A stretch of 51,743 bases of DNA, filler included, from Bipalium vagum (lineage: Eukaryota), in NCBI GenBank assembly GCA_037834085.1. It is 3 parts of 3 records of this genome, joined end to end, with 100 filler letters (N's around TTAATTAATTAA, not from the genome) between each part and the next. Parts side by side here need not be neighbours in the genome. Positions count along the whole stretch, not along the records: positions 33,049 to 51,743 come from JBBMKC010022593.1; 2 more parts are not named here. One strand, given 5' to 3'. The position numbers and the translations under genes were made by a program. Positions 17,351-51,743 of this stretch are shown piece by piece; the stretch's first letter is position 1, and every line of letters begins with the position of its first letter. The notes beneath the pieces are model-generated. The model was not told the origin of the DNA, did not search any database, and worked only from the letters and a program-made list of their open reading frames with translations.

Positions 17351-17687
17351 TAATTCCGTTAACTCGCAAACTTTTTTTTTAATAATTGGTTATTCGAATA
17401 TATGTATTTAATAAAATGTTTTAAAATAAATGTATATTATTTATGATTGCTTTGATTTTCATTTTGAAAGTTAACCTTTAATTAATTATTATTTTTCATA
17501 AAGCTAAATATTAAATTTTTTAGTCGTTAACAACCATAATAAATAAATATTTTAAAATGTATATTATTTTAGATTAACATTCTAAATTAATATTTTAAAA
17601 TTTAAATATTGTTTTAATAATTGTTTAAATAATATGAAATACATCTTTCAAATTTTATCTTAAGCAATTAATTTTAAATTTCAAGTT

Positions 17688-20480: not shown

Positions 20481-21444
20481 TATGGAGGGTGATTAAGAAC
20501 TTACTAACCTAGTTCATGTACCTTCCGATGGGTTTTGATTGAAACGTTTTTCCTTGCATTGTCATGGTGTAGAATAACACCCTTTCGATTGGCTAAATTC
20601 GGATATTTATTTTGTATTTCATATGATAATCGTGTCAATTGTTCACAGTACAGATCTCGTGTAATTGTTTCACCAGGTAACAATTCGAAATGTACAATTC
20701 CCTTGCAATTCCACCAAATAGAAATCATGGTCTTTTTTGCATGGATATTCGGTTTTGATGTGGTAGGAACTGGTTCACCTGGTAAAACATAGACTTTTTT
20801 ACGCGTGACATTACTGTAACGAATCCATTTTTCGTCTCCGGTTATCAACCTGTCTTAAAATGCATCGTTTTCATATCGTAAAAGAGAAGAACATGCAAAA
20901 ACCCGATCCATTTTATTTTTTTCTGTGAGATCATGTACCCATTTAGACCACTTTTGAATAAATACTAGTTTATGTATTGGTTGTAATAGCTGTTTGTGAA
21001 ACCTGGAGTCTCCTCGCTTATTCCCTTGTAGTAGAAAAAGGGTCTGGTTTTAATTCAGACTTTAAGGTGGAGTCATAAACAACAGCCTGAACGTGGTTTA
21101 TCTTCCAAGCTGAAATTTTCATTTTTGGAATTTTTGAAACCAGAACCGAACTGTTCTTTTTTACAGTTTCCTTTCCGAATACCTCTTACAAATTTCTGGT
21201 TGCCTCAGTCGCACTGTTCTTCTTCTGAAATTCGTACAAGATACAATGTCTTATATCTTCTTTATCATAATTCATTTTAGCGCTTATAAAATAGAAAGAT
21301 AATTCAGATAATCAAATGATTTCTTTGTTAATATAATTTTATATATTACTCAAATGATAATATTTATTGTAATGCATCAAGATATTTTTTATTTGAGTTA
21401 TAACATAATATTAAAAATTGGCAAGAACTTTACGTTCAACCTAA
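20481..21444 (-). mobile_element. mariner (cecropia/Hsmar1-like), 3' truncated pseudogene
   Basis: TIR ttaggttgaacgtaaagttcttgcc preceded by TA; ATG at 21275 MNYDKEDIRHCILYEF; ITGDEKWIRY, ISIWWNCKG, LHHDNAR, HPP. Confidence 0.93.
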
Positions 21445-28443: not shown

Positions 28444-29601
28444 CAGTTAAACCTGCATAAATGAACACCTTTGTTAGCTGAACACCTCTTTTTTTTGAAC
28501 ATTTAATTCCGTACACTGTAAATATAAGTTATTATCACCTGTGTTAATTGAAAACTTGTGTACTTTAAAATTTGAACACTTTTTAAAAATTTTGTTTAAA
28601 TAATAAAAAATGACATAAATTTCAATTTAAATTAAAACTATATTTACTATGCACTTAAGTATTTTAGAGAAAATAAAATGTCACCATGATTTGAAGAACG
28701 GTTTGTCCGTACGAGCTGTTGCTAAGAAATTTATAATCTCAAGGCACTGCATCTAGTTTGAAAAATGTAGGGGACGAAATAACAAATAAAATTAACAGAA
28801 ATGAGTCATAAAATAAAAGTGGTTAAAAGTTTATCAGTCCATAATTTTAAAGCTTCAAATGGATGGCTTCAAGCTTTTCGAAATAGGCATACTATATGTT
28901 TTCGAGCACTCTGTGGTGAAAGTGCAAATCTAGACCGAAAAATTGTCCAAAACTGGAAACACTGCTTGCCAAATATTACACATGGGTATAAACCATGCAA
29001 CATTTGAAATGTAGACGAAACAGGATTGTTTTGGCATGGATTACCCCAGAAAGCCTTATCTTAAAAGGAAAAAAAGCAAAAGGAGGTAAATTAGCAAAAG
29101 GAGGTAAATTAGCAAAAGGAGGTAAATTAGCAAAAGAGCGGATTACTATTTGCTTACTTTGTACTTCCACCGGGGAAAAATTTAAGCCTTTAATAATTGA
29201 GATGAACCAAGCTTGCAAATAAAATCATCAATGACTAATGCAATAAGATGTCTAAAAATCTTATCCGATTATATAATTTTTAATGACTTGGATTCAGCAA
29301 TACATTCTTTATCTGAATTACAACAAATAATATTATCTAAAAAGATAACTGTATTGAAAACAACCATCATTGATCAAAGAATAAATGTTTACATATTCGT
29401 TATTTAATTTTGTAGTACTTTAAGTTTTTAAATTTAATTACCTTACTTTTATTTTTCAAAAACCTTGTAAAATTGAACAAAAGTGTAAACAGATGTGTAA
29501 TGTAACCTGTTAAACTTGAACACCTTGATTATCTGAACACCTCTCTAATTTTAACTTTTCAGCAAGGACACTATGGTGTTCAATTTAAGCAGGTTTTACT
29601 G
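28444..29601 (+). mobile_element. Tigger/pogo element, internally deleted, both TIRs present
   Basis: TA+cagttaaacctgc..gaacacc and ggtgttcaatttaagcaggttttactg+TA; FKASNGWL..LCGESA; NVDETGLF; GGKLAKERIT. Confidence 0.92.
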
Positions 29602-30989
29602 TAATTAGAAGTTTGCAGTTATTAGTTATTATACAATTTTTAATTAAAGTTTAAATTATTAACTATTGTTTATTACATATTTATTATGTTTTAGAGTTTT
29701 AGATATTAATACTATTTAGGAAATTTGAATTTATGCTAAAGTTGCGATTTATTTATTGGATAAAATTTAGTTATATAAATTAGTATTTTTTATTTTTTAA
29801 AGTTATTTTTATGAAGTTATTAATTTAATATATTGAGATTAATTATTAATAGATTAAAAGCAATTTTTAAGGTAATTAGATTAATATAATAATAATTTAT
29901 TTATATGTATATAAGGGTTTATTTGATTTTATGTTTATGAGAGATAAGTTATTCTTGAGTTAAAAGCAATATTTAAAGCCAATTAAAATTACATTATAAA
30001 GATGTCAATTTTACATGAAAGTTGCCCATTGAGTTACCAAAGAAATAAAATTATAGATATAAAATTACAAATAGAAAGTACAATGAAAAACCCGCAATCT
30101 CCATTTCTGAATTGCTGAGGCAAAACTTTTTTGGAGGATGCTGGGCTCCAGTCTGAGATTTTGTTGAGGAATACTGAGATATTTTATGACTTTCGTTAAT
30201 TGTAGACCCCTCTCACCATAGTGACAGTTTCCTGTCATGGGATCCAGCAGATATGCAGCACCAGAAGATCTGTCGACCAGAAAAATCAACCAGTGCTACG
30301 CATTCCAGTGCACAGGCCAGACTATTTTTTGCCATTTAAATAGACTAGCAAAGGGGAATAGACGATAGAATTCTCCTAGCTTTTTATTTATTAAAGCTGT
30401 GGCCGGTCTGGGTTGAATGTAGGTGATGTTGTTAACATCTTCTAAGTTTGCCCGGATGAAGATCTCTATCGCCCTCCCTACTAGTCATTCCATATTATTA
30501 TATGCTTCCGTAACTGCCATTTCTAGTAGGGGAGCAGTAGGCTTGCTAGTGGGTGCATCCTGATGCGATTCCAAGTGATGGAAGAACACATCTCTCTTTA
30601 GAATCATCCCACATAGGCACTGATACATTGATTGAGTGCGAATTGATGAAAATTAATCATGTTTTTATCATTATTAATGCTTTTTCGTGTCCTGACTTGA
30701 TACTCTTTAGTGCATTTAGCGCATCGCAACTTGAGTTTTGATATCATTTTAGCCACGACGTCGTTCTCGCCTCCTCAGGCGAAGAATTCAATCCACACAA
30801 GAGGAGTTTGACGATCCATCGGATATTAAGTCAAGAGATCTTTCGAAATCCTTCTCAAAGATCCAGGATAGGTTACCATCGGATAGGATCTTTGGACCTT
30901 TGACATGATCTTCCAGATTACCCTGTCCTATAGTCGTTCACCTTTTCGAACTACCAGTATTTCGGTTGTTGACCGCTCCGCTGGTTTCA

Positions 30990-33048: not shown

Positions 33049-33479
33049 TGAAGCTGATGATGATAATGATGAACCAAGCTTGCAAATAAAACCATCAATG
33101 ACTAATGCAATGGGATGTCTAAAAACCTTATCCGATTACATAATTTTTAATGACTTGGATTCAGCAATACCTTCTTTATCTGAATTATAACGAATAATAT
33201 TATCTAAAAAGAAAACTGTATTGAAAACAACCACCATTGATCAATATTTTAATGAAGAATCAATGTTTACATATTTGTTATTTAATTTTTTACTACTTTA
33301 AGTTGTTAAATTTAATTACCTCATTTTTATTTTTCAAAAACGTTGTAAAATTGAACAAAAGTGTAAACAGATGTGTAATGTAACCTGTTTAACTTGAACA
33401 CCTTGAATATCTGAACACCTCTCTAATTTGAACTTTTCAGCAAGGACACTGTGGTGTTCAATTTAAGCAGGTTTCACTG
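33049..33479 (+). mobile_element. Right end of a second copy of the 28444-29601 Tigger
   Basis: Closely matches 29200-29601, including the TIR ggtgttcaatttaagcaggtttcactg+TA. Confidence 0.92.
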
Positions 33480-33534
33480 TAGTTATTATTTGTTGAAAAA
33501 AAAACAAAGTCACATTTCAAATGTAATATCTTAT

Positions 33535-33910
33535 TTAAAGATTCAATCAATGTTCTTTGTTTCAGTGTCGGCTGCTAAGTAATTCTGATTTTTCTTCAAA
33601 CTTTAGAAAATTGCTTAGGAGGTTTTCGTCAGCTCCTGCAATAATCTCCTAATATTATCAAGATAATCAATAACTTTTTTTACTTGGAATATGCACTAGT
33701 TCATTGACAGATTCCTCCTCATCTGAAGATAAATTATTCGTTGATTTATCAATTCCAACAATCTCTACCGTATTCAGCTCCTCTCAAATGTCTATATCAC
33801 CATCAAGGCACACATATTCGTCGGCTGATAACGGAGATTCCCAAACGCATCGGGAGATTTAGATTCACCGATTGCAGTAAGTTTCTTTTTAACGTTACCA
33901 GTCGCATTGC
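33535..33910 (-). mobile_element. Tigger-type transposase acidic C-terminal remnant (different family)
   Basis: ADEYVCLDGDI..EELNTVEIV..SSDEEES..IPSKK..DYLDNIRR..KQRTL. Confidence 0.55.
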
Positions 33911-34281
33911 AACAGCAAATCGTACTTTTCAATTTTATTTCTCTTCTATATTTATATTATATTTCTTTAATTTTTTCATCGGTTATATTATTTTATATTT
34001 TATTTATATTTATTTATATTTTATTTTATTTATATTTTATTTTATTTATATTTTATTTATATTTTATTATTTTTAGATTTTATTTATATTTTTAAGTTTA
34101 ATTTTTTATTCGTTTTTGTTACGAAATTTATTATTTATTATTTTCATTAAATAATAACCACTTTTAATATGAAATTCAGAACGTGACTCAAAAAAAATTG
34201 TGTGACTTTTTTGTAAAATATAAAACAACAAGACTGGGAGTCAGAGATCAATTTTATTTCAAAGGGTTTTATTTATTTCCA

Positions 34282-34905
34282 TCACCTCACCAGCTTACAG
34301 ACCTCTTCAATTGGCTTGTGAGAACTGCAAACGATGAATCGTCTTTGGTTGCATGGCAGGGTATTCCACTTTCCTTTCCAGTCTCTGGAGACCTCGACGC
34401 ACCTTTCTTTCTTCTTCGGAGATACCGGTTTCGGATTGCCGTAGCCCCAATTTCTGAAAAATAATATTTGTGAAATAACTTCCTTTACTTCAAATGGTGT
34501 CATACAAGAAGTTAACTTTCTCTCCATCGCTGTCTCTGTAGTCTCCTGGTGTCTCTATGTCATTGACATCAATCCAAAAGTCTCTTAAGCCTTTTTTCGC
34601 AACCGCCAAATGCGCGACATCCTGACCATTTATAAAATCATTTCTACTATATCTGAATCAAATTTACATTGGCTGTCTGATTGGTGATCTTGAGAAGCTT
34701 CCATCCTCTCATCTTACAAAACTTGATAGCGTCGCAGAAAGTACCCTTGTCCTTATGGATTTGAAGATCTTTCTCTGACCAACCTGTTTGAAAATGAGTG
34801 ACAATATCAAATTAACAATGCCAGTAGACATTTGTTAAAACTACCATTGATCATGGGCACCATCGTCACCACCGCCAATATTGAAAACATAACGATCATT
34901 GTCAT
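34282..34905 (-). CDS. Secreted single-domain C-type lectin; complement(join(34282..34453,34506..34621,34668..34783,34845..34905)), 154 aa
   Basis: Signal peptide MTMIVMFSILAVVTMVPMING; TFCDAIKFCKMRGWKL; FWIDVND; NWGYGNPK..ERCVE..GKWNTLPC..RFIVC; three GT-AG introns (61, 46, 52 nt) keep frame; AATAAA after the stop. Confidence 0.93.
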
Positions 34906-34935
34906 TTTTACATTTCTCCAGATCTTCTACTATCC

Positions 34936-34942
34936 TTTTATA
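34936..34942 (-). promoter_or_regulatory. TATA box of the C-type lectin gene
   Basis: TATAAAA starting 37 nt upstream of the ATG. Confidence 0.6.
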
Positions 34943-35315
34943 TTGATCCTATCAGAAGTCCCAACACCATCTGGTCTCGGACTTGAAGCAATAACGTTAC
35001 TAAAACATTGCAAGGGTTGTTGACATTGGAGTCAGGAATTAATTAAGTTAAAAGCTTTCGCAAACAAGGACGTCCAAAATCCATTATTATTAATATTTAT
35101 TTTACTTCATTTTTATTATTTATTATTTTTTCACAAAAATAAATAATTTCATTTATAATGGAGAAATCACTTACACTATTAAAAAAAAATTTGTGAAATA
35201 ATGGAATTTTTAATTTTTTTTAAATAAATTAAGAAATATTTTTTTGAATAAATTAATTTAAGTAAATATTTTATAATAATTTTATTTTTATTATAAATTA
35301 TTATTCCATAATTTT

Positions 35316-35352
<37 letters not shown>

Positions 35353-35399
35353 CGGGTGCGTGGTATAATCGCGGATTATTTTGAATCAGTCAACCAAAT

Positions 35400-35820
35400 C
35401 AAACAGAAAATAAGCTCTGTCTATTTGTTGATATTTTTGTATTGATTGGAATTTGATATATAATTGATTAAAAATTTTTTTATAGATTTCATATTTTAGA
35501 TGAACATAAACCTGTGCATATTTTTCAGTGTACACATCTCCAAAATGGTACATTTTCCCGATTCTGTGTATTAAATACAAAAACCTTCATGTAATACTTT
35601 CTTGCCTCCGCGAGATGTTTTTACAATACGTCGTTTCATGAGAAATGCAATTTTACAAGAAGAAATGTGATTATTCCAAAAATGCTTATGATGTCATGTC
35701 CATGTGTCATATTTTTAATGTGATAAATTATCTGTGTAACGAATTTCCTTTTGGTAAATAAAAGTGTGACAAAATATCAATGTGACAATAAATTTATGAC
35801 GAAATGTCAGTGAACTATTT
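35400..35820 (-). mobile_element. MULE-like remnant with FLYWCH zinc finger and TIR-like end
   Basis: LHEGFLYLIHRIGK..FWRCVH*KICTG (frameshifted); gttcactgacatttcgtcat terminus with short internal repeats. Confidence 0.55.
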
Positions 35821-35839
35821 TAACCCCAGGTAATCTTTT

Positions 35840-36550
35840 ACTATCTTCTGGTGACATTAAATAGCAGCATGGGGATTTCTTTCTTTGATATCTTGAGGAT
35901 GTGGTCCTATTACCTTTCGAAGGCTTTCTAATTCCACAATCTTCTTATAAAATATTTTTGCTTTTTTATTTGCTTTCTTCATTTTCAATTTATCTTCACT
36001 TTAATCCATGGTTTTGTGTTGGACCAATAATAATTGATCACACAGTTTCATTGATTTATTATCGAGGCTATAAAACAGTTGAAATGGGATGTTTTACCCC
36101 GCCTGCCATACTCTCCAGACATTGGTCCGTCGGATGATCATTTATTTCATTCGATGGCATATGGTCTGTCAGAGCACAGCTTTATGACTTATGAGGATGT
36201 AAAAAAAATGGCTAGACCAGTGGATTGCCTCTTAATCAAATAATTTTTTCTATGATGGCATACATAAACATTGGGAAAACGTTGTCATGAGCGAAGGAAA
36301 TTATTTTTCATAAAAATCTTTTATAAATTTTCATTGGTTGTTTTTTATTTATTTTATTTTAAATAAGGGTAAAAACGACGGAGTTATATTTGTAGACCTA
36401 ATAATTGATTGAGTTCATTTTGTGAGAATGGCATTTGTTAATTTTAATAATCACCGTTTTCTTGCTTATCCTCTTTTGTATCAGTATTTTATTGGTAACG
36501 TATTGTTGATTGAAACGTGGGCACGGGACACTGTTGACGTTATCTTAGTG
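35840..36550 (-). mobile_element. Fragment of the same non-LTR family as 38340-40200
   Basis: 35845-36065 and 36415-36550 match 39085-39445 (ctggtgacattaaatagc.., gcacgggacac..gacgttatcttag). Confidence 0.75.
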
Positions 36551-36760
36551 CAGAAGATTTTTTTACCATGTTCATGAGCTTAAACATTTAAGAAAATATC
36601 AGTTCTAACGATGAAGTTGACACTGAAAATGAATTATACCAATTAGGAGATGCTTAACAAAGTGAATTGATTTTGAAGACCGTTGCTAAGGTTTGCTTTT
36701 TACTTGACATTGAAATTATCACATTTCATCAAAATATTACTGTTTTTTCATCACTTTTAA

Positions 36761-37700
36761 TCAGTTTGGGACAAGTATATAGAGCCCCGCAATATTATCA
36801 TGGAGAAAGCAGTTTCCGTTCCCTTCCAGTGACCATGATAGACAGAACAGATTTTCGTTGCAGAGCGCTGCACATTCTACCAAAGAACCTGCTTGCATCT
36901 TTTGAGAATGAGTTTTATTTTTCTTTGCACTGTTTGATCGTGCAATAAAGTCTGAGACATTTTCGTTAGAAAGAAACATTAATAGAAATGCTCACAATTG
37001 GATCCCATTGACTTTTGAAACGGATGACCATAAACATCGAATTCACATACCATGATGGAATATTTAGCATAGTTCTTTGACATAACCAGAGTTCTTGCAA
37101 TCTGAAAACAAAGGAATTAACTCTTCTTAACTTCAAAATAAATAATAAGTGCCAGTCTCGTAAAATTGAACTGAGTTTTCATTTCTCCTTCCGGTGGAGG
37201 TCCGCAATAATAAAAGAGAAAGGAAAATGGTGACAGTTTCGAAGAAAACGTTTTCTGTCCATCATAGCTGGCGTAAAATGAGAGAGAGTTTGTATGACGT
37301 TCTAATACATTATTTATAAGGAAAATTATATAAAAGTGTCCAACCCGCTTTCACCCGATTGTATAATCTAAATTTCCTGATGACGTACACATTGCCAAGA
37401 TCAATCAGCCACCATTTGATTTTATTCAGTCCTTTACTTTCATGACAAGAATCTGTGTAAATGAAATAACACTGTCATTCTCAACCAAAAAATATTACTC
37501 TTTCGCATCTCGTTATCGTAATTTCCGTCCACTGCAAGAGATAAATACCATTGATTGTAAAAGTTTGCAGAGTTTGTAAACTTCTTCCGCGATATCAGAA
37601 CATCTAAACCAAATCAATGATTAAAATTACTTTAATGGTTCTTGGTAACTTTAGAGGCTGTATTCGTTAAAATCAGATAAATAAAATATGCGAGTTTAAT
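36761..37700 (-). pseudogene. F-type lectin + PAN/apple gene, copy 1; exons 2-6 open, start codon ATG>ATT and first donor GT>TT
   Basis: Colinear with copy 2: LAVDGNYDN, SCHES..WWLIDLG..LYNR, MVCEFDVYG, SLVECAALCNENLFCLSW; exon 1 reads att aaa ctc gca..tct aaa g|ttacca. Confidence 0.75.
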
Positions 37701-38339
37701 CGTAACATTTGCAAGTAAAAGTAAAATGTCCCTCAACAAATTTGTTTTAAATATCATTGTAACTCCCTCCACATTCCCCCCATTGTTTCGTTGATATATC
37801 AGTGATAGTCGCAGATGTGTTACAATTTGAACCACCTCTTTAATGCATGATGTTTTACCATCCAAATTAACACCATTTACTCTCAACTTCATTACACAAG
37901 ACCAGGCCTTCATAATCCTATTTGTGTACAATGTATGGCAGGGATAGTTTCAGGAATATTGTACATACTGTGAGGAAGTAAACATTTATGACGGAGTTAA
38001 TATTTTAATGGCCTATACCCCGGAACTATTTTTAATGGTGATACTATTTTCTTTTACTTAAGTGGTATCGCAGTAGCAGAATGGTTTCCGTAAGGTTTAA
38101 CACATTTTCAGAGGCTGACCATTAACCCCTTCACTAAGCAATATGTTCCAATATGAAATCATTGGTTTTCACTCAGTAAAACAGTGATATATTTTTATGA
38201 AATTTTCTCTGTATTATTTTCCTGCTGTAACCCAGGTTATTTAATGTGATATCAGATATAAATTATAATAATATTATTTTTATTAAATTACATTATTATT
38301 ATTATGATTATGATTATTATTATTACTAAATTTTATTTA

Positions 38340-40200
38340 TAAAACAAATATGTCGTGCGCCAGACTCATAAATTAAATAAATAAGCACAAGTGCCACAGA
38401 TATAATCAACCTGCATGGGCCTATGATAAATTTCATCCAATAATTGGCTTGTTTCACTCTCCAATGATCAGCGTCTTCAGTTGGATATTATAATCAGGTT
38501 TTGTCAGTTTAATTTTTCTCTTCAAGTCCGAATACTTTACGATATTTCAATTATCACTTATATCACAGCTTCGTAAAAAGTCAATTGGACATTTTAAATC
38601 AACCAAGTAAATAATATTCTTCTCTACCTTTGAAATGATCAAATCTACTCTCTCTTTTGAGTCTTGGACCTATTGATATTGCATTTTATTCTGTACAACG
38701 AGTTCTGGTTTTTGAAAGACATTGAAGATTTTTTCCAGAAAAATATCATGTCTTTGTCCAATAAGGGAAAGATTGCTCTTGCAAACCTGCACCACATAAG
38801 TCATTGATTCATTCTCAGAATGGCAGCGTTTGCATAGGCGTGCCTGGTTTTCCTTAAGAAATGGGGAATGATTTATTGCCAATGTGTTGGTTCTGGCTTT
38901 GTGAATAAATTTGAAGCTAAAAATTCCCGGTACGGCGAGAAAAATGCTCTTGATTGTTGATGGACATAGATTAAAGAAATTGTGTGTGGCGGGGCCAAAA
39001 GTGTCATCTTTACTTTGAGCTGCTCCAACTCAGTGAATTTATTACGGACATTCAGTACAGGCTCCAATTAATACACTTTTATGATCCTCTGGTGACATTA
39101 AATAGCAACATAGATGTTTTTTCTTTGATATCTTGAGAATGTTGATCTATTACCTTTTGCAGATTTTTTAATTGCTTTCTTAGGATATTTTTGCTTTTAT
39201 ATTTGCTTTATCGTTTTAAATGTATTTTCACTTTAATCCATTCTTTTGTATTGGACCAATAATAATTGATCACACAGTTTTATTGATTTATTATCGTAAT
39301 TGATTGACTTTGTTTTGTGAGAATGGCATTTGTTAATTTTAATAATCACCGTTTTCTTTTGACTCCTTTTCACTATTTCATTGGTCGCGTATTGTTGGAA
39401 GTTGATTGAAGCGTGTGCACGGGACACGGTTGACGTTATCTTAGGGAGAATGAATATTTTCTTTCCATTCCGAAGTTAAGTCGTTTCTTTATACTGTATT
39501 TTCCTTCATTTTTGATTGCTTCAATAGTGGTTTTTCATATTTCTCTGAATGAAACCGGAAAAATCGGGGTTTAGATTAGAGTACAGATAGAAATAAGAAT
39601 TATTTTCATAAGGGATAGAAAGTTTAGATTCGTTGGCTTTATTTTATTTCCTGGTCGTAGAAATATGTTCGTTTGCTGAGTTCATTCGTCAAAGAAAATA
39701 ATTTTTTAAAGGTTTTTTTGTCTCTGACAGCCTTGTATTTATTATGTTATATAATTATTTGTTGAGATACTCGATGATTCGTTCTGTTCTTCTTTTCTTT
39801 TGTAAACCTTTTGCTCAGAAATATTTACCTTTAATGGGACTGAAAGGTTTTCTTTGAAGGGTGACACACAAAGACATTAATGAAGTTTCATTGGAAAATG
39901 ATTCAGAATATACCCGGTTTTATATTGGTTTATATGGCAAAGATGCTATGGGATTTTCATAAAAGGGATTCAAGGTGCTCCTCCTCCGGGTGAACAAGTT
40001 TCTATTTAACCTTCCTGTCTTTGAAGTTCCCTTGTAGCCTCGAACACTGACATTGATTCTCCGGTATTTAAGTCTTGAATTTTGGCTTTTATAGGGGTCG
40101 AAAGTTTTTCAGATTTTTCTGGAAAAGACCGGGCTGAGATGTCAGACTGTTGTTTGCTATTTTGCTTTGCTAATTGTTCTTCTTGTCGTCAGTTGATTTA
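38340..40200 (-). mobile_element. R2-superfamily (RLE) non-LTR element with the RT region deleted
   Basis: FIHKARTNTLAIN..CKRCHSENESMTYVVQVC..RHD..RVDLII..YLVDLKCP; 3' end abuts a degenerate TAA repeat. Confidence 0.85.
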
Positions 40201-40738
40201 AAGGCAAACCTGGCGTATTCTTCAAATTTTCTAAGTTTAATCAAAACTAATATCCCTGTAACATTATTATATATAATATATAAAATAAATTATCATTTTT
40301 CTATTTTAAGAATTCATTTCATTGTTTCATTTGCAGAGAGAAACAGGATAAAACTTACCATTGTCCCCATTCTTTGAAAATGATTGAAAGGAGTTATATT
40401 TATCATGAACATGTAGATGTTTCATGTAGCTGGTCTTATGAAGGACTGCCTTGCGTGATAAATGGGTGGGATAAAGCAGGCCTTTATGTGCGAATAGAAA
40501 AACAGATGATGGACATTGTAATATTATCTGCAATCATCACTGAAATGGCTCTGAAAAGAAAACTGGAAAATAGTTTCATGCATCACTGGGCCCAAGAAAG
40601 TTAGAAGAATTGATTGACACAAATATTATATGCGATATCATCGAAGCAGTGGAATGAATGAGGTGGGATGTTTTCCTTGCAATGGTATTTAAAACAAAAT
40701 ACAGGGGCACCTTACATTTTTCAATTGCAAATACGAAA

Positions 40739-41677
40739 ATGAAGCTCGCACAGTGCATTTTTCTCATCATGAGGTTTTCAGTCTCTAAGGGTACCAGAAC
40801 CATTTTATTACGTTTGATATAACATTTGGTTTAGATGTTCTGATATCAAGGAAGACGTTTACAAACTCTGCAAACTTTCACAGTTCTCGGTATTCATCTC
40901 TGGCAGTGGACGGAAATTACGATAACGAGATCCTCCACAGTAATATTGCTTGATTGACAATGACAGTGTTACTTCATTTACACAGATTCGTGTCATGAAA
41001 GCGAAGAACGGAATAAAATCAAATGGTGGCTGATTGATCTTGGCAGTGTGTACGTCATTAGGAAATTTATATTATACAATCGTTTGAACGCCGGTTGGAA
41101 ACTTTAATGTATTTTTCTCTATAAAAGATGTTTTAGAATTTCATACGAATTCTCTCTCATTTTACGCCAGCGTTGAAGGACAGAAAACGTTTTCTTCGAA
41201 AATATCAACATTTTACTTTCTCTTTTATTACGGTGGACCTCCACCGAAAGGAGAAATGAAAACTCAGTTCAATTTTACGAGACTGGCACTTATTATTTAT
41301 TTTGAAGTTAAGAAGAGTTAATACCTTTGTTTTCAGATTGCAAGAACTCTGGTTATGTCAAAGGACTATGCTAAATATTCCATATTGTTATGTGAATTCG
41401 ATGTTTATGGTCATCCGTTTCAAAAGTCAATGGGATCCAATTGTGAGCATTTCTATTAATGTTATTGTCTAACGAAAATGTCTTAGACTTTATTGCAAGA
41501 TCAAACAGTGCAAAGGAAAATAAAACTCATTCTCAAAAGATGCAAGCAGGTTCTTTGGTAGAATGCGCAGTGCTCTGCAACGAAAATCTCTTTTGTATGT
41601 CATGGTCATTGGGATGGAGCGGAGATTGTTTTCTCTTTGATAACACTGGAGGTCGTTATCGTCTTGCTGTAGAGTGA
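40739..41677 (+). CDS. Secreted F-type lectin (fucolectin/FTP) + PAN/apple protein, copy 2, intact; join(40739..40790,40835..40939,40986..41093,41137..41285,41337..41442,41487..41677), 236 aa
   Basis: Signal-like MKLAQCIFLIMRFSVSK; SLAVDGNYDN, SCH..KWWLIDLG..ILYNR, LLCEFDVYG; PAN SLVECAVLCNENLFCMSW..DCFL; introns of 44/46/43/51/44 nt keep frame; intron 4 probably GC-AG; tatttaaa upstream. Confidence 0.88.
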
Positions 41678-41977
41678 CTGAGCTGTGACAACATCGAAAC
41701 AATATTTAAATAAAATTTGAAGCCATAGAACGATCTTCTACATAAATTTTACTTTTTAAAACTACTTTGGTACTTTTTCTCAATTTCATTTATAGAGTCA
41801 CCATTATTCATAGTGCCATCTTTTTTAAATGTTAACGTTAATGAATATGGTAGAAAAGAGAGAGAACCATACAAAAAACCTACATATATGTACGATTGTG
41901 AATTAAAGGAATACGCATGATAATGTTCGTTTTTGGTGTTCGGTTGAAGATCAAACACCCTTTGAAAATCAACCTTT

Positions 41978-44780
41978 TGTTGGCTCAACTCTTGCTTAGC
42001 TCACTGACCTATACTGAGGTTGCTGTGGGCTTACCTAAAGAGCTTACCCTCTAACAAAACTCAAAAACAAACATTCAAAAAATTTTCTTAAATAAAATGA
42101 GGGTGAAATCATTTTTATTTACAGCAATCAAACTTCTCAATGAGTCTCTCAAGCACACTCTAGTTAAAAGCTGTGCCAGGGAAAACCCTAGTCAGCAAAA
42201 TTAAAATTACAAAAAACTATACTTGTAGTCTCCTGATAAGACTTACAAGGCAAAAAGAAAAGACTGAAAGAAGAGATCTCTAAAAGTAGAGGAATAAATA
42301 AGGTCTTAAAAATAAAAAATGCACTAAACTACTTTAGAAGAAATGGAGATATTATGTTCAAAATTGATCACTTTCAGAAAAGTTCTCAAAAACAGATTAG
42401 GCAAAATAAAATTAGGGAATCTAGGAGTGGTAGATACCTTAAAAAACCAATAAAACAGGTCGAAACGAAAAAATCTTCCCATGATGAGGTTCCTCACAAA
42501 AATGTTACCAAGTATGTGGAAATAGAAACTTATCAAAATACATGTACTTCAAATGGTAGAAAATCTATGAAAAGAGACTCTACAAGAAATGACAACGTTA
42601 CCAGGAAGTTTAATTTTAGAGAGTACAAAACACTCTTGCGAAACATGGAAAGAACAGACAAGTGATAATAAACAACCCCTGAAATCAGCTTCAACTGCTA
42701 CTCAGTTCCCAGGCATAACTGGATTGTCAAAAATAAAATTCTTTAACAATAAATTCCATTTGATTATCAAAAAGAGTGAAGGACATACAAGATGTAATTC
42801 GAACTATAAAAAGCGGTCGGATCACAACGTTTGGCTCGGAGAAATAAACTTAAATTTGCAGTCTGTATCATTAGGACTGATCAAGATAAATATAGAAAAA
42901 AGAAATACATACCAACTCATCCAAATATCATAAAGCTTTTATTATTCTTCTGTCCTGTTTTGCAGAACTCAATCTCGTGGAAGATCAAGAAATGAGATCG
43001 ATGAAAATAAACAACCTCCTACTAAACATAATGGAACAGAATAAACTTCCAAATATACTTGAGAAACTCAATTTTAAATTTCATAACGGCGAATTCTTAT
43101 GCCTTGATTCTTCTGGTCTTTCCGATTTTTCATGACAAAGACATCACCAGAATATACTTATTTTCTCTTATTGTCTCTGGTAGTGAACCTACTACATTCA
43201 TTCCTGTTTGCTCCGTTGGTTTTGATGGAACTGATATTGGCTGTAATGGTACTTCATTTCTAGCGCATGTTCCTCGTCTGGTTTGATATAATGCGCATGA
43301 TTGACACCAATTTCTTATTTCTGCTTCCATTCTATTCCAGTAATACTTTCTCGCCATTCTAGAAAGAGTTATTCTGGCTGACAAATACCCTCCTAAGGAT
43401 GCATCATGATATTGCATCCTTACTGCTGTCCAAATGTTCCTTGGTAGGACATATCTTGGCTCATGTTTTCCTTCATAAAACAGTATTCTTTTTACAAGTT
43501 TAAATTTATCCTTATATTTCGGCCATCTTGTCCATCCTTCTTGTACCATTCCTTCTGTTAAGGATCTGATAATTAGACGAATCTCTTCATCTTCTTCTTG
43601 ATCACTCTGTCTGGTATCAATGTTGCGAATTCTCCGTATGACTGTAAGCACGGTCTTGTCTTCTTCCGTAAAATCTTCATCTGGTTCTTCTTGCTCTATT
43701 CTTGACAATGCGTTAGCATTGGTATTTGCTCTGCCAATTTTATATTTGATTTCTATGTCATATTCTTGCAATGTTAGAGCCCATCTGATTAATCTACTTC
43801 AATACCCATTGCAAAGTAAAAAGAACGATTTTATGCCCTCATAGATAATGTCTAAATTTCTTTACTGCAAAAAATACTGCTAAGCTTCTTTTTTCAATGA
43901 TAGCGTAATTTTTCTCGTGTCTCTTTAAGACTCTACTTGCGTATGCAATAACATGATCTATTTCGCCTTCCTCTTGCTGAGCTAAAATAGCACCTAATGC
44001 ATATCCGTCAGCGTCTGTCATTAAGAGAAATGGTTTGACCATATTTGGATATCTTAAAAATGGTTTTTAACTAATTGTTCTTTTATCGTTTCAAAAGTTT
44101 GCTACTTGATTGTATCTCTTCTGTAGGTCCATTATTGTAAAAATTGTAACCATTTTAATTTTATCGATCATCATCTCTATAACTGGTATGAGATATGTCT
44201 TTTCATGTTACTTCATTCATTTTTCTGTAATCGATGCACATTCTGATTGATCCATCTTTTTTATTACAATCACAACTGGTGAAGCCTATGGTGATGAACT
44301 TGTTTCAATTATTTCCGTGTAACATGTTCTTAATTTCTTAATCTATTTCGTTTTCAAAAGTATATGGATAGCAATACGCTGTTTCATCGGTAAGCGTTAT
44401 GCTATACCTTAGAATATGAGTACATCCAAGGTCGTAATTGTTTTTCGCAAATATTTTATGAATATGAATCATTCTGGCATCATTGTAACCGAAAGCTTCA
44501 GCCATTCGTTTGTACTCAACCATGAAATCAGAAAACTCCGTTAGTTCACCATTAAAATCTTCTATGGGCAAACTATAATAAGATTCACTTTCAAATAACT
44601 CTAATTAGCCTTTAATGAAAACAAATACTTTTAAAAGCCTTGATTCAAATCTAGCCACTAGGACCTCACAACTTCACGTACAGCTTCCTCAGATTTTATA
44701 TAATATAGCCTCAAAGGCTCACAAATACTCCCTAGCCTCGTATATTTAGCTCACCAATTATATGTTGGTGCAACTCTTGG
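41978..44780 (-). mobile_element. Ty3/gypsy retrotransposon remnant (PBS, gag start, RNase H, integrase)
   Basis: tgttgg..caactcttg LTR ends at 41978 and 44763; tggtgagc PBS; PIEDFNG..MAEAFGY; TDADGYALGAIL..IAYASR..NY..EK; LQEYDIEIKY..NANALSR; HDASLGG..YYW..CQSC. Confidence 0.88.
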
Positions 44781-45632
44781 TCAAAATACTTTTCTGGGTG
44801 CTTTTATTTTGTGACAGATTTATTGGGATAGTCTAAAGAATCATTAACTGCTTTTGAAGAATGAATATTCGAAATATTTGTATGATATACGAATTAAGAG
44901 GAAGGCAGACACTGTTTCAGTTGAGTTATCTGACGCAGACTGAAGATGGTGAGAGAGGTATTTCTGATTCCTGCTGCACTATAACTACGAAAAATACAAA
45001 TAAAATTTCCCGAAAGTTTGAAAAACTCACAACAGTTCCAAGAAGAACTCAATGTGAGAGACATGGTCTGCATTTCAGAATTCTTTTAAGGTTTGAAGAG
45101 ATTGTAACCCCTGTAACCAATTCTGTGTTTTTCCATTCCTCATTAATTTCATGACAATGAGGCTCCAATTGAAGAATGAGTTAAGGGTCATATTTTGAAC
45201 TGAGGCTTTAAAATCCGTTCAATCAGAATGATAACTTTCAGCCCTGGTGATATGAAAAGTTCAGATACATCCAAAAAACATCAAGTGATGATCCAAAAAA
45301 AAGCTTTAAAAGACTGATTTTCAAAGAGTAATTTATGTTCAAATAAATTGGATAAATTTGAGGGGTCGAGATAACTAAATGGAATAATCAATAAAATATA
45401 TTATAAATAATATTTTAATTAACACTCGTACATATATGATCGGATTCCAAAATGGTTCTCTACTCTTTGTACCATGTTCATTAACATTAGCATTTAAGGA
45501 AAGGTACTTCTATTGATGATGACACTAAAAATGGATTTTAGAACATATACCTAAGGATTTTAACAAGGTAAAACTGATGTTCTATGGCTTCAAATTTTAT
45601 TTAAGTATTGTTTCTTTGTTGTCACAGCTCAG

Positions 45633-46570
45633 TCACTCTACAGCAAAAAGATAGCGACCTCCATTGTTATCAAAGAGAAAACAATCTCGTTCCATCCCAA
45701 TGACCATGACAGACAAAACTGACGTTCGTTGCAGAGCACTGCGCATTCTACCAAAGAGCCTACTTGTATCTTTTGAGAATGAGTTGCATTTTCCTTCACA
45801 TTGTTTGATTGTGCAATGAAATCTAAGACATTTTCGTGAGATAGTAACATTAATAGAAATGCTCACAATTGGATCCCATTGACTTTTGAAACAGATGACC
45901 ATAAACATCGAATTCACATAACATGATGGAGTATTGAGAATAGTCCTTTGACATAACGAGAGTTCTTGCAATCTGAAAACAAAGGAATTAACTCTTCTTA
46001 ACTTTAAAATAAATAATAAGTGCCAGTCTCATAAAATTGAACTGATTTTTCATTTCTCCTTTCGTTGGAGGTCCACCATAATAAAGGAGAAAGTAAAATG
46101 TTGACAGTTTCGAAGAAAATGTTTTCTGTCCTCTATAGCTGGCGTAAAATGAGAGAGAATTCGTTTGACGTTCTAAAACATTATTCATAGAGAAAAATGA
46201 AGGAAGGTTTCCAACCGTTGTTCACCCGATTGTATAATATCAATTTCCTGATGACGTACACATTGCCAAGATCAATCAGCCACCATTTGGTTGTATTCCA
46301 TCATTTGCTTTCATAACACGAATCTGTGTAAATGAAGTAACACTGTCATTCTCAATGAGACAATATTACTGTGGAGCATGTCGTTATCGTAATTTCCGTC
46401 CACTGCAAGAGATGAATACCAACGATTGTAAAAGTTTGCAGAGTTTGTAAACTTCTCCCTTGATATCAGAATATCTAAGCCAAATTTTATATCAAAATTA
46501 ATAAAAGGTTTTTGATACCTATAGAGGCTGAAATCCTCATGATGAGAAAAATAAAATGTGTGAGCCTCAT
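45633..46570 (-). pseudogene. F-type lectin + PAN/apple gene, copy 3; nonsense codon and frameshift
   Basis: Same six exons (MRLTHFIFLIMRISASI|DILISREKF..); in-frame TGA at 46301-46303; 1-nt deletion in the last exon near 45690. Confidence 0.88.
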
Positions 46571-47670
46571 TGAGAATTGCAATTGTGAATGAAAGGTCCC
46601 TCATCAATTTGTTTAAATATTAATGCCAAGAAGCAACGCCGTTTCAATAAAATCCTAGTGACTAGGTTCTACTGTGTCCATGGTAATGTATATATTTGCA
46701 TTATGTGATTCCATTGTTTTCCGTCATGGGCCACCACTGTGTAAAACTAACAATGGAACCATTTCAATGATGATTGCAGAAAATATCACAATGCCCATCA
46801 TCTGTTTCATTAATGAAGTCTTCCTATCCCAATGTAAAGCTTATTTTATCCCACCCATTTTCGTATTAGCAATCCCTTCTCAAGATTCACACTAAGGAAA
46901 ATTATACATATTCTTCGTAATGATGATAACGGTACCCTTGTCAATCATTTAGACAGAATGAGAATAATTAAAACATCTCCTTCCGGGTCACGAAACAACA
47001 GCGAATTATTAAAATAGAACAATGATAAATATATTTCGCTTATTATTTATATATTGGTGTGAAAGCGAAAGTATTCTTAATTATGGTAATATTTTAATAT
47101 TATTAATAATAATGCCAATAATAAAAATAATAATGATAAAAGTGTTCTTTCCCTTTTTTCTACACTACATATTGGAACACCAGTACGATTCAAAATACAA
47201 AATTCCAAAGAGGAAGGATGGTTCGAATGCACATTCACCTTGAAAGAGGCTCGTTTTTTTATAAATAAATTTTGCTTAAACAAAATTAATTTATTTCATT
47301 GGACAATATTTTATTTATTATTGAATATATTTCCTTCATTTTATTCTTATACTCTTATCCTTCCTCCTTCTTTAAAACAGTTTTCATTGAGTCTACAAAT
47401 TAGTTCAGTCCGTTTTTACAAGTCAAAAATGTATTAAGTAAATGTATATATTTATTTTACAACAACATCAATGAACAAAATAATGTCCATCGCTGCCAAC
47501 TGCATTTTCCAACGTCTCAGATAATTCTCAAAATCCATCTTGAAAAAAATTCTCGTCTTTTTTTAGGTGATCCAAGTTAGGACCCATTGGTCGATTTATT
47601 TGAAAGAAATTACAATAATGTCAATATTTATGTTTAAATGTTAAAAAGAAAACAAATAACAAACTCTTAC

Positions 47671-47897
47671 CAATTGAGAACATTGTGTCCTAAGGTCGTG
47701 TGATGATGTCGATCCGGTACGCTCATAAACACCCTAAGAGTGAAGGAACCATAGTTGGCTCTTGTGGCATAAAAACTGGTATAATCATAATAATAAACAT
47801 TTACCAATAGTTTTCTTTCGTGCAACAGACGCTTCTTCCGACTCAAATACTTTAACAAAATAAAACTGATTTGTGGCAGTCTCTTGTGTCATTTATA
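47671..47897 (-). pseudogene. Core promoter plus first two exons of a decayed, probably secreted-protein gene
   Basis: TATAAAT (47897) exactly 30 nt before the A of Inr TCAGTT (47867); 44-nt GT-AG intron 47804-47761; ATG at 47752 MVPSLLGCL*AYRIDIITRP*DTMFSI; donor gtaaga at 47670. Confidence 0.5.
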
Positions 47898-48021
47898 CTG
47901 ATCAGATGACTTAATTGGGAATGTTAGATACATATTACAAAATCGATCCTTAAATGCTGACTGTGATCTAATCTTGGGACTTCGAAATTCGCCATTGTGA
48001 AGATTAGATCATTCAAAACAA

Positions 48022-48023
48022 AA

Positions 48024-48086
<63 letters not shown>

Positions 48087-48093
48087 TATTATT
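48022..48093. repeat. Head-to-head (AAT)n/(ATT)n palindromic microsatellite
   Basis: Direct reading; symmetry centre at about 48048. Confidence 0.9.
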
Positions 48094-48382
48094 CTGACTC
48101 TTCTGCGATCTTTAAACCCTTTTAGAAAGACAATTCAAAGAAATAAAGGGATGTACCATTGGTAACCAAACAGAATTACTATTTTTAAATCTATCCAACC
48201 AGCTCGCATGTCTTTTCAGATGGAGATTTTACGCAATGATACGATAACTCTCAGCTGCTTTTTTGCACTTCTTATAATAACTAAAACTTTGAACGGTTCT
48301 GTAAGAATGATAGGAAGGAACCGTCTAAACTACTTTTACTAATATTTAGAAAAGGTGCTCTTCTACAAATCAGGCTCTAGAT

Positions 48383-49815
48383 CAGGGATGAACGTGTAAT
48401 GATTTTCTCCTGCCCAAAAAAATTTTTCATATAAAAATTAAAAAAATTTTCAATTATTTAAAATAAATTGTCTCAAATAAAAATAACGTGTGTATAAGTG
48501 ATTTGTAGAATTTTTTTATGTTCTTATTTCTATGATTTCCATGTGATACACATACATCACTAAAATATATTCGAATAGTAGTATTTATATCGGTTGTTAT
48601 AGCAAATCATTAAAATCAAAATTATATGGTTTCATTTTTTTAGTCATGAGTAATGAAATGCATTCACTGAATATAGCCAACAGCATTCTTATTTCAATTA
48701 GTCTATCTTTGCAAGAAAGACAGACTTTGCGCAACAATGGATTTAGTCAATCGGGCGCATATAAAGTTCTAAAACAGTTTGATACTCTCGAAAGTACATT
48801 TGATGGAAGGCGGTTTAATGGATCTCAATGTAAGATTACTGGAACAGCTGCTGGTGGACTTGTCAGCAGTTTCAACAATAGCACGCACAAAAGCCTACGT
48901 AAAGCAGCCAAAAATTTCAATGTCTGCCACACAACATTTTTTAACACATTGAAGAGATATGGTGTTATGTGCTACAAGCGAAAAAAGGCGCCTATGTACA
49001 ATTCATCTATAAATAAACAGATTAAAAAAACTCTGGGTCGACTCTATCGTGAGCATCTAACAATGGGACAAGATGGTTTGCCTTTTATCATTATGGATGA
49101 TGAAACATATATAACCCAAAATGATGAAGGAAAAGTTTTTTAGTAGAACGTTTTATGCCAAAGAAATCAACACCACCCCAGAAGAAATCAAAACCTATGG
49201 TCGCACAAAATTTCCTTTCAAAGTGGGTTTGTGGTATGCAATGTCTGCACATAGTATTTATTATTATATCTGGTTCCAGGGGATGGAAATTAATGCACAA
49301 AATTACAAGATTCATTGTCTTCAACAAAGGCTAGTTCCTTTTATTGAAAAACACTATCCAGGGCGAAACTGCATTTTCTGGCCAGACAAAGCATCCTCCA
49401 TTATGCTGCTTCGACTTTGCATTATCTTGAATTCAAACAAATACCTGTTGTGAAGAAGTGCAATAATCCGACTAACGTTCCACAATGCTGTCCCATTGAG
49501 TTTTTACATGCAGAGATAAAGAGAAGAGTTTTCGACAACAAGTTTCATCCACAATCTGCTGCTCAACTTGAGTTACGTCTTCGTACAATCCAAGGATGAC
49601 TTGATACTCCATGCTCCTCCTCATTGTGACAACTTCTGCAGCAAAGTACGAGTGTTAGTTGATAAGGAATATAGATGTGGATTGTTGTCTGTTCATAAAT
49701 GAGTTGTTCATATCTTTTTATTTATAAATATATTATTTAATCTTGGATTTTTAATACTTATCATTTTAAAATTTGTCAAAACAAAATTCTACGAATCAAT
49801 TATACACATGTTACT
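48383..49815 (+). mobile_element. ITmD37E (DD37E) Tc1/mariner-superfamily transposon, near full length, two frameshifts
   Basis: IIMDDETY; KFPFKVGLW; FWPDKASSHYA..NPTNVPQCCPIE with 37 residues between D and E after fixing a 1-nt deletion; inverted repeats at 48484-48517 and 49782-49814. Confidence 0.88.
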
Positions 49816-49821
49816 AATAAA

Positions 49822-50480
49822 TCTTAAGCAACCAGCAGAAATCCGCCATCATGCGCTCATCCGACTGGTCCTGGTATCGCTTTTCGATGATACTTATTGT
49901 TTGGTGAAATCTTTCACCACGTTCATCAATAATTCAGCCCAAATTTTGTGGGGAAAAGTTCAGATGGCACTTCAATAGTGCATTTTAAGGAAAATTTTAT
50001 TATTCATCTCTTGAAAACATCTAATAATTCAAAAATAGTTTTCTGGTAATCCATGGAACGGTGTTTATCCTGTTAAGATTAAATATTTACTTCATTTAGA
50101 TATGGTAGCAACAAGACAAACCTTAAAGGTTGTTCACGGTGTCTAGCAAGGCTTCTTATGCCCGGCATTAAGTTTTACTTAAGCTCCTTTTGAAATACAT
50201 ATTTCTCATTTGTGGTCCAACCAAAATCCCTTCTTTGATTTTAGCCCTTGATAATTTCAGGAAATATACTTTTAATATTTGAAACGGCTGGCCTTCGGGT
50301 TATAAAGCTTTAATAAGGTTCCTGAGAATGCCTAACTTGATAGCTGGTAATAGAATATTCTTTACACTGAAAAGTGCTTCATGCTTGATATTGCATTGGC
50401 CGGGTGTTCAGTTCTAACGACTTAGCCATTCTTTGCTGTATAGTGCTGATCACATGTCCTATTATCCCATAAATTATTGT
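49822..50480 (-). mobile_element. Chapaev3-like (CMC) transposase C-terminal remnant
   Basis: LWDNR..HY..EW; ILLPA.IKLG..LIKAL; AKIKEGILVGPQMR; LKMHY..FPQNLG..DERGERFHQTISIIEKRYQ..MMADFCW. Confidence 0.75.
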
Positions 50481-50535
50481 AGGATTGATGGAAATTTATT
50501 GGATCATACAAAATAGAAAAATATAATGGAGCTGA

Positions 50536-50700
50536 TGTTAAGTTTTCCTAAGATTTGGATGATATTAAAAAATGTTAATTATCGGAGCTTAATTAACTCT
50601 TAGGACTTAACGGTTGAAGGTTGCTTACAGTTGTGTTCGTCAAAATATAAATTGATTTAAATGAACTGAGATAACGCTGTAAGTTAAATACTTTTATTAA
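50536..50700 (-). mobile_element. LTR 3' end, same family as 1-77 and 15856-16178
   Basis: Reverse complement matches window positions 1-77; far boundary not determined. Confidence 0.5.
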
Positions 50701-51743
50701 AATCGAATTAAAGTTTGATAATACAAATGAATGATACCAACGTTGACCGATTAAAGTGAGTTTATTAATTATGGTTATTATTTATAAAAAAATCCTCTCG
50801 CACTTAGGCTCAGAGGTCCTCAATAAAGAAAAACAAGTATACCTCACCGCCCTACTTAGCGTGTGAAATATGAACAAAAAGAAACAAAAGGTAACGAGAA
50901 AAAGGAATTCAAAAAGTTACTTTATCCTCAGGTCCTGGCCTGAGTATTTAATTATTATTAAGTTATAAAAACTGTGTCTTGTCTAACAAGACACGCCTGT
51001 TTAATTAAAAATGTAAATGATTACAAAACAATAAATATTATTAAGAATCGAGACAAGTCTTGTGAATCTTAGATTTCAAGCCGGTATTATATTATATTAT
51101 TAAGATGTATAAAAACTTGCTACAGATACTATTAAAATTTTTATTATCACTTATGATCAAACTAATGAAAATAATGCAATTAAGAAAAATAACACCTTTA
51201 TTTAAACTAAACTGATACTATTCAGTATCAAGTAAACACAAAAATATAAAAGAAAGTTTACTCTATCAACAATTTTGGTGCATATAATTTTGAATTTGAT
51301 GAGCGGCGTTCTCTAAGTCATTCTGATACCAATTGATGAATTTGTCGTTGTAGGATAGGTTTAGAATATAACACGCTTTTGAGGTTCGAAGCACCTTTAT
51401 CTATTCGTCTAGCTTAGTGAATTCTTGCTTGAGTTTAATCTTTCCTTCTCTCTTGTCGAAATCTTGATTCTATATATACTTTCTTATCGTAGTTATTCGC
51501 GACTTGTTTGATTTTGTTTTAATTGTTATTATTGAAAAATGATACTGTTGACTTTAATTTTCCTTTTGAAATTAATCTAGATGTCTGCTACTTCCGTTAA
51601 ACTCTAACGGAGATCGCACTTGTAGTTGAAATTTAAAATCTTGTTTTATTTTGATTAATTAATTTTTTATTGATGAAAATTGAAGTTGATTATCTTGAAT
51701 TGGAATGTTGCTTGCTCTTGTTGCGTCGCTCACTGTGTTCGAT

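Follow-up and report, generated by a model that had tools for sequence, protein, structure and literature searches.

A family of F-type lectin-PAN genes in the Bipalium vagum assembly combines birth-and-death turnover, mosaic copies, and stepwise loss of the fucose motif

The fucose motif of F-type lectins is HX26RXDX4R/K (PMC5297725, accessible sections); the accessible sections of PMC5712786 print X24, and the residue numbers given there yield X26. The same sections describe the systems closest to the genes reported here. Variation among eel fucolectin isoforms is concentrated in complementarity-determining regions 1 and 2 (CDR1 and CDR2). Pacific oyster bindin, a sperm-specific product of few genes, carries 1-5 tandem F-type lectin domains (FTLDs) diversified by alternative splicing, and it shows positive selection around the pocket, copies that recombine, and isoforms from which the basic triad is missing. 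Amphioxus and hemichordates have large, lineage-specific, and architecturally diverse repertoires, with >70 clusters in Branchiostoma floridae. Here, we describe genes that join a single FTLD to a PAN domain, starting from three copies in a stretch of 51,743 nucleotides ("the window") of the Bipalium vagum assembly GCA_037834085.1; positions 33049-51743, which hold them, are the entire 18.7-kb contig C22593 (JBBMKC010022593.1).

Lectins have been reported in planarian mucus and are expanded in land planarians (bioRxiv 2025.01.09.632098; PMC13034038; available parts of both), with 19 lectin-like copies in Obama nungara and 26 in Bipalium kewense according to the first source. Since a 'Fucolectin-4' is named in a Schmidtea extracellular matrix proteome (available part of bioRxiv 2020.09.11.293936), planarian F-type lectins as such are not new. 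Oyster bindin and fish fucolectins already show the combination of birth-and-death turnover, loop selection, and recombination. The literature searched, whose coverage excludes most subscription papers, contained no description of this FTLD-PAN family and nothing of its scale, single architecture, or complete decay series in a flatworm. Bishnoi et al. 2015 reportedly found FTLD-PAN fusions in other invertebrates.

The three window copies, A, B, and C, are oriented minus, plus, minus and share ~85% DNA identity. Gene models and splicing were read from the DNA, and the features at issue are as follows.

40739..41677, plus strand: copy B, intact, 236 amino acids (exons 40739-40790, 40835-40939, 40986-41093, 41137-41285, 41337-41442, 41487-41677)
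36761..37700, minus strand: copy A, exons 2-6 open (37603-37499, 37452-37345, 37301-37153, 37101-36996, 36951-36761)
45633..46570, minus strand: copy C, a pseudogene whose exon 3 has a premature stop (46303-46301) and whose exon 6 is frameshifted (near 45688)
40835..41030, plus strand: exons 2-3 of B, with CDR1 to CDR3, the Ca motif AVDGN, and positively selected codons 35, 36, 51, 59, and 61 (B numbering)
41020..41189, plus strand: gene-conversion tract in B, identical to locus L003 on another contig and covering CDR4
41286..41336, plus strand: GC-AG intron 4 of B, with a GC donor in A and C too
35835..36564, no strand assigned: flank downstream of A, with a second copy at 39076-39460 (81-83% identity, self-BLAST)

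The product of the six exons of copy B would run from a short hydrophobic leader through an FTLD and a linker to a PAN domain. The introns of B are 44, 46, 43, 51, and 44 nt long. The original prediction, made from the window alone, of three six-exon paralogues in alternating orientation with 43-51-nt introns is confirmed. The single-exon motifs quoted in that prediction lie at the places and on the strands given, and RVKAERHT/RLNAEFHT/RVNNERQT arises across the exon 3/4 junction of the spliced models. Proteins of the copy B type are predicted to be secreted: the N terminus is short, hydrophobic, and on its own exon (Kyte-Doolittle 9-mer maximum, 2.5), and no later segment has transmembrane length. 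Only one of the three copies, B, is intact. The stop in C had been seen earlier; its frameshift had been missed, as had the changes in A, a probable pseudogene in which the homologous place holds no start codon and the first intron donor is lost. The repeated flank of A is a relic of segmental duplication, and A with its flanks is shared with paralogue L009 over 2.3 kb.

The three copies had been proposed to differ mainly in loops around the sugar site, with AVDGN and the core strands fixed. The concentration in loops is beyond chance, with 22/38 CDR positions variable versus 17/95 in the core (Fisher p=1.3e-5). AVDGN is indeed kept; the core strands, given those 17 positions, are not fixed. 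Outside the lectin domain, 19/58 PAN positions and 12/17 in the signal exon vary.

The trio, first presented as a three-gene cluster, proved to be part of a far larger family. A DNA search of the assembly gave 42 matches; with a single protein query from exon 3, the number at E<=0.01 was 140. Loci (L numbers) were taken for nearly all of the latter, a few short contig-end matches being left out, and the family counts are lower bounds. These loci contain 137 exon-3 units (one spurious), with a PAN exon downstream in 94 and exons 2-6 present in 88; the remaining units are cut by contig or locus ends, partial, or single-exon FTLDs. Identity to copy B ranges from 34 to 84%. As only three pairs are >90% identical (maximum, 0.92), most copies are paralogues rather than alleles. 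Broken copies make up 8 of the 24 full-length close copies (25 were modeled, one of them cut by a contig), and 11 of the 88 units have an in-exon stop. Birth-and-death turnover, with duplication and decay, is thus as had been proposed, in a family of at least 94 genes of the predicted signal peptide-FTLD-PAN type that is larger and more pseudogenized than the original prediction implied. On other contigs, two family copies lie 2-9 kb apart, tandem or opposed (L057 on C245430, L068 on C222834, and on C68890 and C213600), and such pairs suggest that small clusters are the rule.

The family is also older than this genome, judging from relatives in other records. An HMMER search with a 34-sequence exon-4 profile against 1.84 billion proteins gave 12 matches, 11 of them family-like and one a long repetitive protein. 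Those 11 come from ENA, JGI, and Logan records as open frames in which short introns, placed as in the family, are read through; one has PAN and one has RADCC..R. None of the profile matches is a named relative, and a word-indexed homologue search with a close exon-4 alignment gave no match. One paralogue in the present assembly (L069:658-1365) has introns 3-5 in frame and stop-free, which gives a 235-amino-acid open frame from exon 3 to PAN.

Across the 94 family units, the homologous intron-4 donor is GT in 45, GC in 38, GA in 1, and unread in 10. Because the donor position is common to the whole family, we regard the intron-4 boundary as fixed; GC donors in three distant copies indicate that the GT/GC switch occurred more than once. 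Two other readings were ruled out: a 30-nt GT-AG alternative, whose GT is absent from copy C and most paralogues, and a coding intron 4, by its variable length and in-frame stop. The donor context is weak, the GC-AG form is kept in those 38 paralogues, and intron 4 has the lowest divergence of the five introns in the clade of the window copies (0.06 versus 0.10-0.26).

The fucose motif was predicted to be degenerate in all three window copies. It is: Glu stands at His52, Asn or Lys at Asp81, and His or Gln at Arg86, and the spacing is one short. Their 11-member clade shares Glu at His52, the absence of Asp81 and of Cys-Cys, and His/Gln at Arg86, so that Arg79 is the only triad residue kept. 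The wider family holds the other stages. Among the 88 units, 13 have His, RxDCC, and the final Arg, 36 have His..Arg..Arg, and 16 have Cys-Cys; up to 13/88 thus carry the canonical motif, with the X4 spacing unambiguous in 8 Cys-Cys-bearing units. A 65-member clade (Shimodaira-Hasegawa-like approximate likelihood ratio test [SH-aLRT], 91) lacks Cys-Cys and mostly has a CDR4 one residue shorter; within it lies a 39-member group that has lost the final Arg (Arg86). Glu at His52 arose separately in four canonical-type copies. The direction of decay follows from a midpoint root together with the fucose motif being ancestral in F-type lectins.

Loop spacing is ambiguous in some Cys-Cys copies, where the donor called automatically is a GT within Cys codons. 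The TGT Cys codons of RxDCC copies (L068, L085, L109, L114, L124, and others) are in-frame alternative donors just before the intron, at the end of exon 3. Donor sliding could explain the shorter CDR4 of the derived clade, or it could yield splice variants of the loop.

Like the eel fucolectins (Anguilla anguilla agglutinin, 1k12; A. japonica eFL-1 to 7), the genes would encode a single secreted FTLD with h2DGx, Cys50-Cys146, and Arg79. Unlike the window clade, every eel isoform retains His52-Arg79-Arg86; the window clade also lacks the two other disulfides (Cys82-Cys83 and Cys108-Cys124; B has only two Cys in its FTLD), is one residue shorter in CDR4, and adds a C-terminal PAN. The window branch likely no longer binds fucose in the classic way and may recognize other, varied surface molecules. 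The window copies of this FTLD-PAN family fail the fucolectin motif and should not be filed as fucose binders.

To measure selection, GY94 codon models were run in custom code on 16 intact copies, and the M0 log-likelihood agrees with IQ-TREE. The overall ratio of nonsynonymous to synonymous rates (dN/dS) is 0.40 under M0. Site models favor positive selection (M1a/M2a, p=1.3e-5; M8a/M8, p=1e-6), with a class of dN/dS ~3 strongly supported in exons 2-3; selected sites are 35 and 36 (CDR1), 51 (CDR2), 59 and 61 (CDR3), and 230 (PAN). By region, dN/dS is 0.21 in the core, 0.29 in the linker, 0.41 in the leader, 0.42 in the SVEG loop, and 0.48 in PAN, against 0.57 in CDR5, 0.65 in CDR2, 0.84 in CDR4, 0.89 in CDR3, and 1.58 in CDR1 (CDR1 >1, p=0.003; CDRs versus core, p=6e-37). 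SYDG/SVEG/SYRG, which had been counted among the loops of the sugar site, is therefore under purifying selection; by alignment it follows the strand after CDR4 and probably is not a sugar-site loop.

The copies are mosaics produced by gene conversion. Approximately unbiased (AU) tests reject the trees of other segments, and in comparisons among ten close copies, 4 of 45 pairs have identical tracts that are significant. The tract that B shares with L003 is 170 bp long and covers a run of 55 polymorphic sites (permutation p=0.0005; Bonferroni, 0.02); outside it, exon 1 and intron 1 of the two copies differ by 31-39%. Conflicting segment trees and shared tracts call for recombination control of the selection tests. 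On their own tree, exons 1-3 remain significant (p=3e-7), as do exon 2 and exon 3 separately, the set without three indel-bearing copies, and a 9-copy sister group. Recombination-null simulations with tree switching reached a maximum statistic of 3.7 in 24, compared with 31.7 observed.

Mosaic tracts could also be misjoins in an assembly of 441 Mb in 272,664 contigs with more than one COX1, and the family might then consist of alleles, chimeras, or prey DNA. The best COX1 uses the flatworm mitochondrial code and is 100% identical over 434 amino acids to that of Platydemus manokwari, a land planarian that preys on snails; the next named matches are other land planarians. Of two further COX1 sequences (L032, L033), one is flatworm-like (a nuclear copy or a second worm) and the other is not (prey, parasite, or contaminant), and foreign DNA may be present in the assembly. 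Nevertheless, an artifact or foreign origin of the family is largely refuted and seems to us next to impossible. The window copies are 15% apart in DNA on one contig in alternating orientation, family members are 34 to 84% identical to B, the core is under strong purifying selection (dN/dS, 0.21), and intron positions are conserved in 88 units. With the family spread over ~100 contigs, the window is most reasonably taken as the planarian's own nuclear DNA. The findings on which the original prediction had been staked turned out in its favor: domain matches exist, substitutions are not even with loop dN/dS well below 1, and the copies do not behave as assembly artifacts.

The proposed FTLD and PAN identities were upheld by profile matches. 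An exon-3 profile has 8 PDB matches, eel fucolectin 1k12 at their head (E=6e-4) and further F-type lectins among the others; the alignment with 1k12 places S-C-x-x-S on Ser49-Ser53 and an invariant Arg on Arg79. An exon-5 profile best matches FBP32 (3cqo; E=0.024). Exon 2 matches, at 97.6%, a second FTLD family of the same genome, which itself matches FBP32 at 8e-18, so that homology to solved F-type lectins rests on all three exons; exon 4 does not align to this second family. The second family has its domain on one exon, with no PAN exon detected nearby (L071, L072, L132, L133, L138, L140, L145, L147, L151, L154); three copies are in tandem on C134343, and the triad is mostly degenerate. AVDGN, S-C, and L-C-E in A, B, and C supply the cation motif (h2DGx plus the Ser49, Cys146, and Glu147 ligands). 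Cys55 and Cys157 of B, invariant in the alignments, correspond to Cys50-Cys146 and would form its bond. Family alignments show little or no variation in the Ca motif, this pair, and Arg79, and the domain would adopt a Ca-stabilized jelly-roll fold. Against Pfam, exon 3 of B matches F5_F8_type_C_2 (E=1.5e-4), a profile that 21/21 exon-3 sequences match, below the curated cutoff. Exon 6 of B matches PAN_1 (E=6.9e-4; 19.9 bits versus a cutoff of 21.4), with 12/19 copies matching; it has the four invariant Cys of PAN/apple domains, and its top ESM Atlas matches are PAN at 0.95.

That the family is real and evolving is well supported; its function is a proposal. The reading we favor, and hold to be rather probable, is that a family shaped by duplication and decay, gene conversion, and pocket-loop selection serves as a germline repertoire binding varied foreign surfaces in mucus. 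Because Arg79 is invariant and the rim is under selection, the pocket would still be used, with a ligand that is not terminal fucose; the many genes whose rim is selected suggest that the target is external and changing. PAN would act as a second binding, oligomerizing, or assembly module. The surfaces bound may be those of microbes, parasites, and possibly prey, with recognition of microbes and parasites the first choice on account of the lectins reported in planarian mucus and their expansion in land species. The shift in ligand specificity and the immune or host-interaction role suggested at the outset would fit this reading. In a bolder version, which we think unlikely, the ~100 genes are an antibody-like germline repertoire reshuffled by gene conversion, the youngest branches having exchanged fucose for new targets, glycans or proteins, on microbes or on snails taken as prey, with every step of the ligand switch kept in one genome.

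Several observations weigh against the favored reading. Single-exon Pfam matches to the FTLD and PAN profiles all fall under curated cutoffs, and the exon-2 and exon-4 profiles match no lectin in PDB. A structure model of a paralogue read-through frame, from a 5-row alignment, is of low confidence (predicted local distance difference test [pLDDT], 47); with it, Foldseek returned nothing at E<=0.001, and most of its top rows, with E of 1e-3 to 1e-2, are F5/8, discoidin, or F-lectin domains. Loop boundaries were drawn by analogy with the eel lectin description, after the alignment had been seen. Exons 4-5 (the end of CDR4, and CDR5) show no positive selection, and PAN exon 6 is borderline (p=0.07). 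The tree is rooted by midpoint and supports the window clade moderately (SH-aLRT, 82) and the 39-member group weakly (SH-aLRT, 42). The loop diversification proposed at the outset holds under site models in the wider family and falls short of significance in the window clade alone (7 intact copies, p=0.06). Pooled CDR dN/dS is 0.89, and relaxed constraint could give the same at most loop sites. Such values at or below 1, the nonsignificant result for the window clade alone, and the one third of close copies that are broken would also suit a bulk secreted protein amplified for dosage, its loops drifting after fucose binding was lost and with no recognition arms race. We judge this account very improbable, as the class with dN/dS ~3 in exons 2-3 survives recombination control and CDR1 exceeds 1.

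The sequence and selection data do not separate defense from prey handling or reproduction. Pocket-loop selection is compatible with an arms race against any external partner, and the species matched by COX1 is a snail predator; the proteins might accordingly be adhesive or subduing parts of predatory mucus or a pharyngeal secretion, tracking the glycans of gastropod prey. This prey-directed role is possible but doubtful. Relatives of the same architecture in metagenome and Logan records extend the family beyond this genome, and the proteins have no pore-forming or enzymatic domain. The predictions in bioRxiv 2025.01.09.632098 are computational, and PAN, fucose, and discoidin are absent from the available part of its text. 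[quoted passage not shown]

Oyster bindin offers a reproductive alternative, in which sperm, seminal, or cocoon proteins diversify by sexual conflict. Its FTLDs share three signatures with the present family, namely, pocket selection, recombination between copies, and variants without the basic triad (PMC5712786, accessible sections). Bindin, however, owes its diversity to tandem FTLDs and alternative splicing in a small number of genes, whereas here there are ~100 dispersed genes, each with one FTLD; a single FTLD followed by PAN was found in 94 units. We therefore regard a reproductive role as quite improbable. The amphioxus and hemichordate repertoires are likewise large and lineage specific and, unlike this one, in which a single six-exon architecture dominates, diverse in architecture.

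A gene for a lectin of another class lies beside the trio.

34282..34905, minus strand: C-type lectin-like gene of 4 exons (34905-34845, 34783-34668, 34621-34506, 34453-34282), ~154 amino acids, hydrophobic N terminus

The atypical C-type lectin predicted to adjoin the trio is thus present. Its exon 4 matches Pfam Lectin_C (E=6e-5; 24.1 bits, over the cutoff of 22.6), while its other exons give no Lectin_C match. Ca-dependent sugar-binding C-type lectins carry EPN or QPD plus WND; in this gene, NPK and WNT replace the EPN and WND of conglutinin (6ryg), its best PDB match. The genome holds 4 close and 3 distant copies. One close copy shares contig C201428 with L009, the kin of copy A, which suggests that both gene types were duplicated jointly at least once. 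The C-type copies (34282-34905; L157-L159) are strongly basic and vary before a WID motif and in a long loop. The gene fits the planarian class of C-type lectin-like gland proteins (Shagin et al. 2002, as cited in the available part of bioRxiv 2025.01.09.632098).

Other features of the window are as follows.

43130..43798, minus strand: decayed long terminal repeat (LTR) retrotransposon pol fragment between B and C (Pfam Integrase_H2C2, E=4.7e-13)
1502-1927, 13585-13887, 20504-20854, and 48547-49600: mariner/Tc1-type transposase fragments (Pfam HTH_48, Transposase_1, HTH_50)
17664-19689: long, nearly intron-free AAA-ATPase gene on another part (Pfam AAA, E=4.7e-4), resembling ATAD5/Elg1

A 418-bp repeat of 92% identity, common to 29201-29607 and 33068-33485 in two separate parts, is likely an interspersed element.

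The family places in one genome a series of sites that grade from the textbook fucose type to one in which a single basic residue of the three is left, on a scaffold that is otherwise fixed and with measurable selection. This series makes the ligands of motif-deviant F-type lectins testable with few recombinant proteins. If the proposal is true, land planarians, among them an invasive snail predator, would have in these genes a first candidate for a variable-recognition family, and new glycan probes could be drawn from it.

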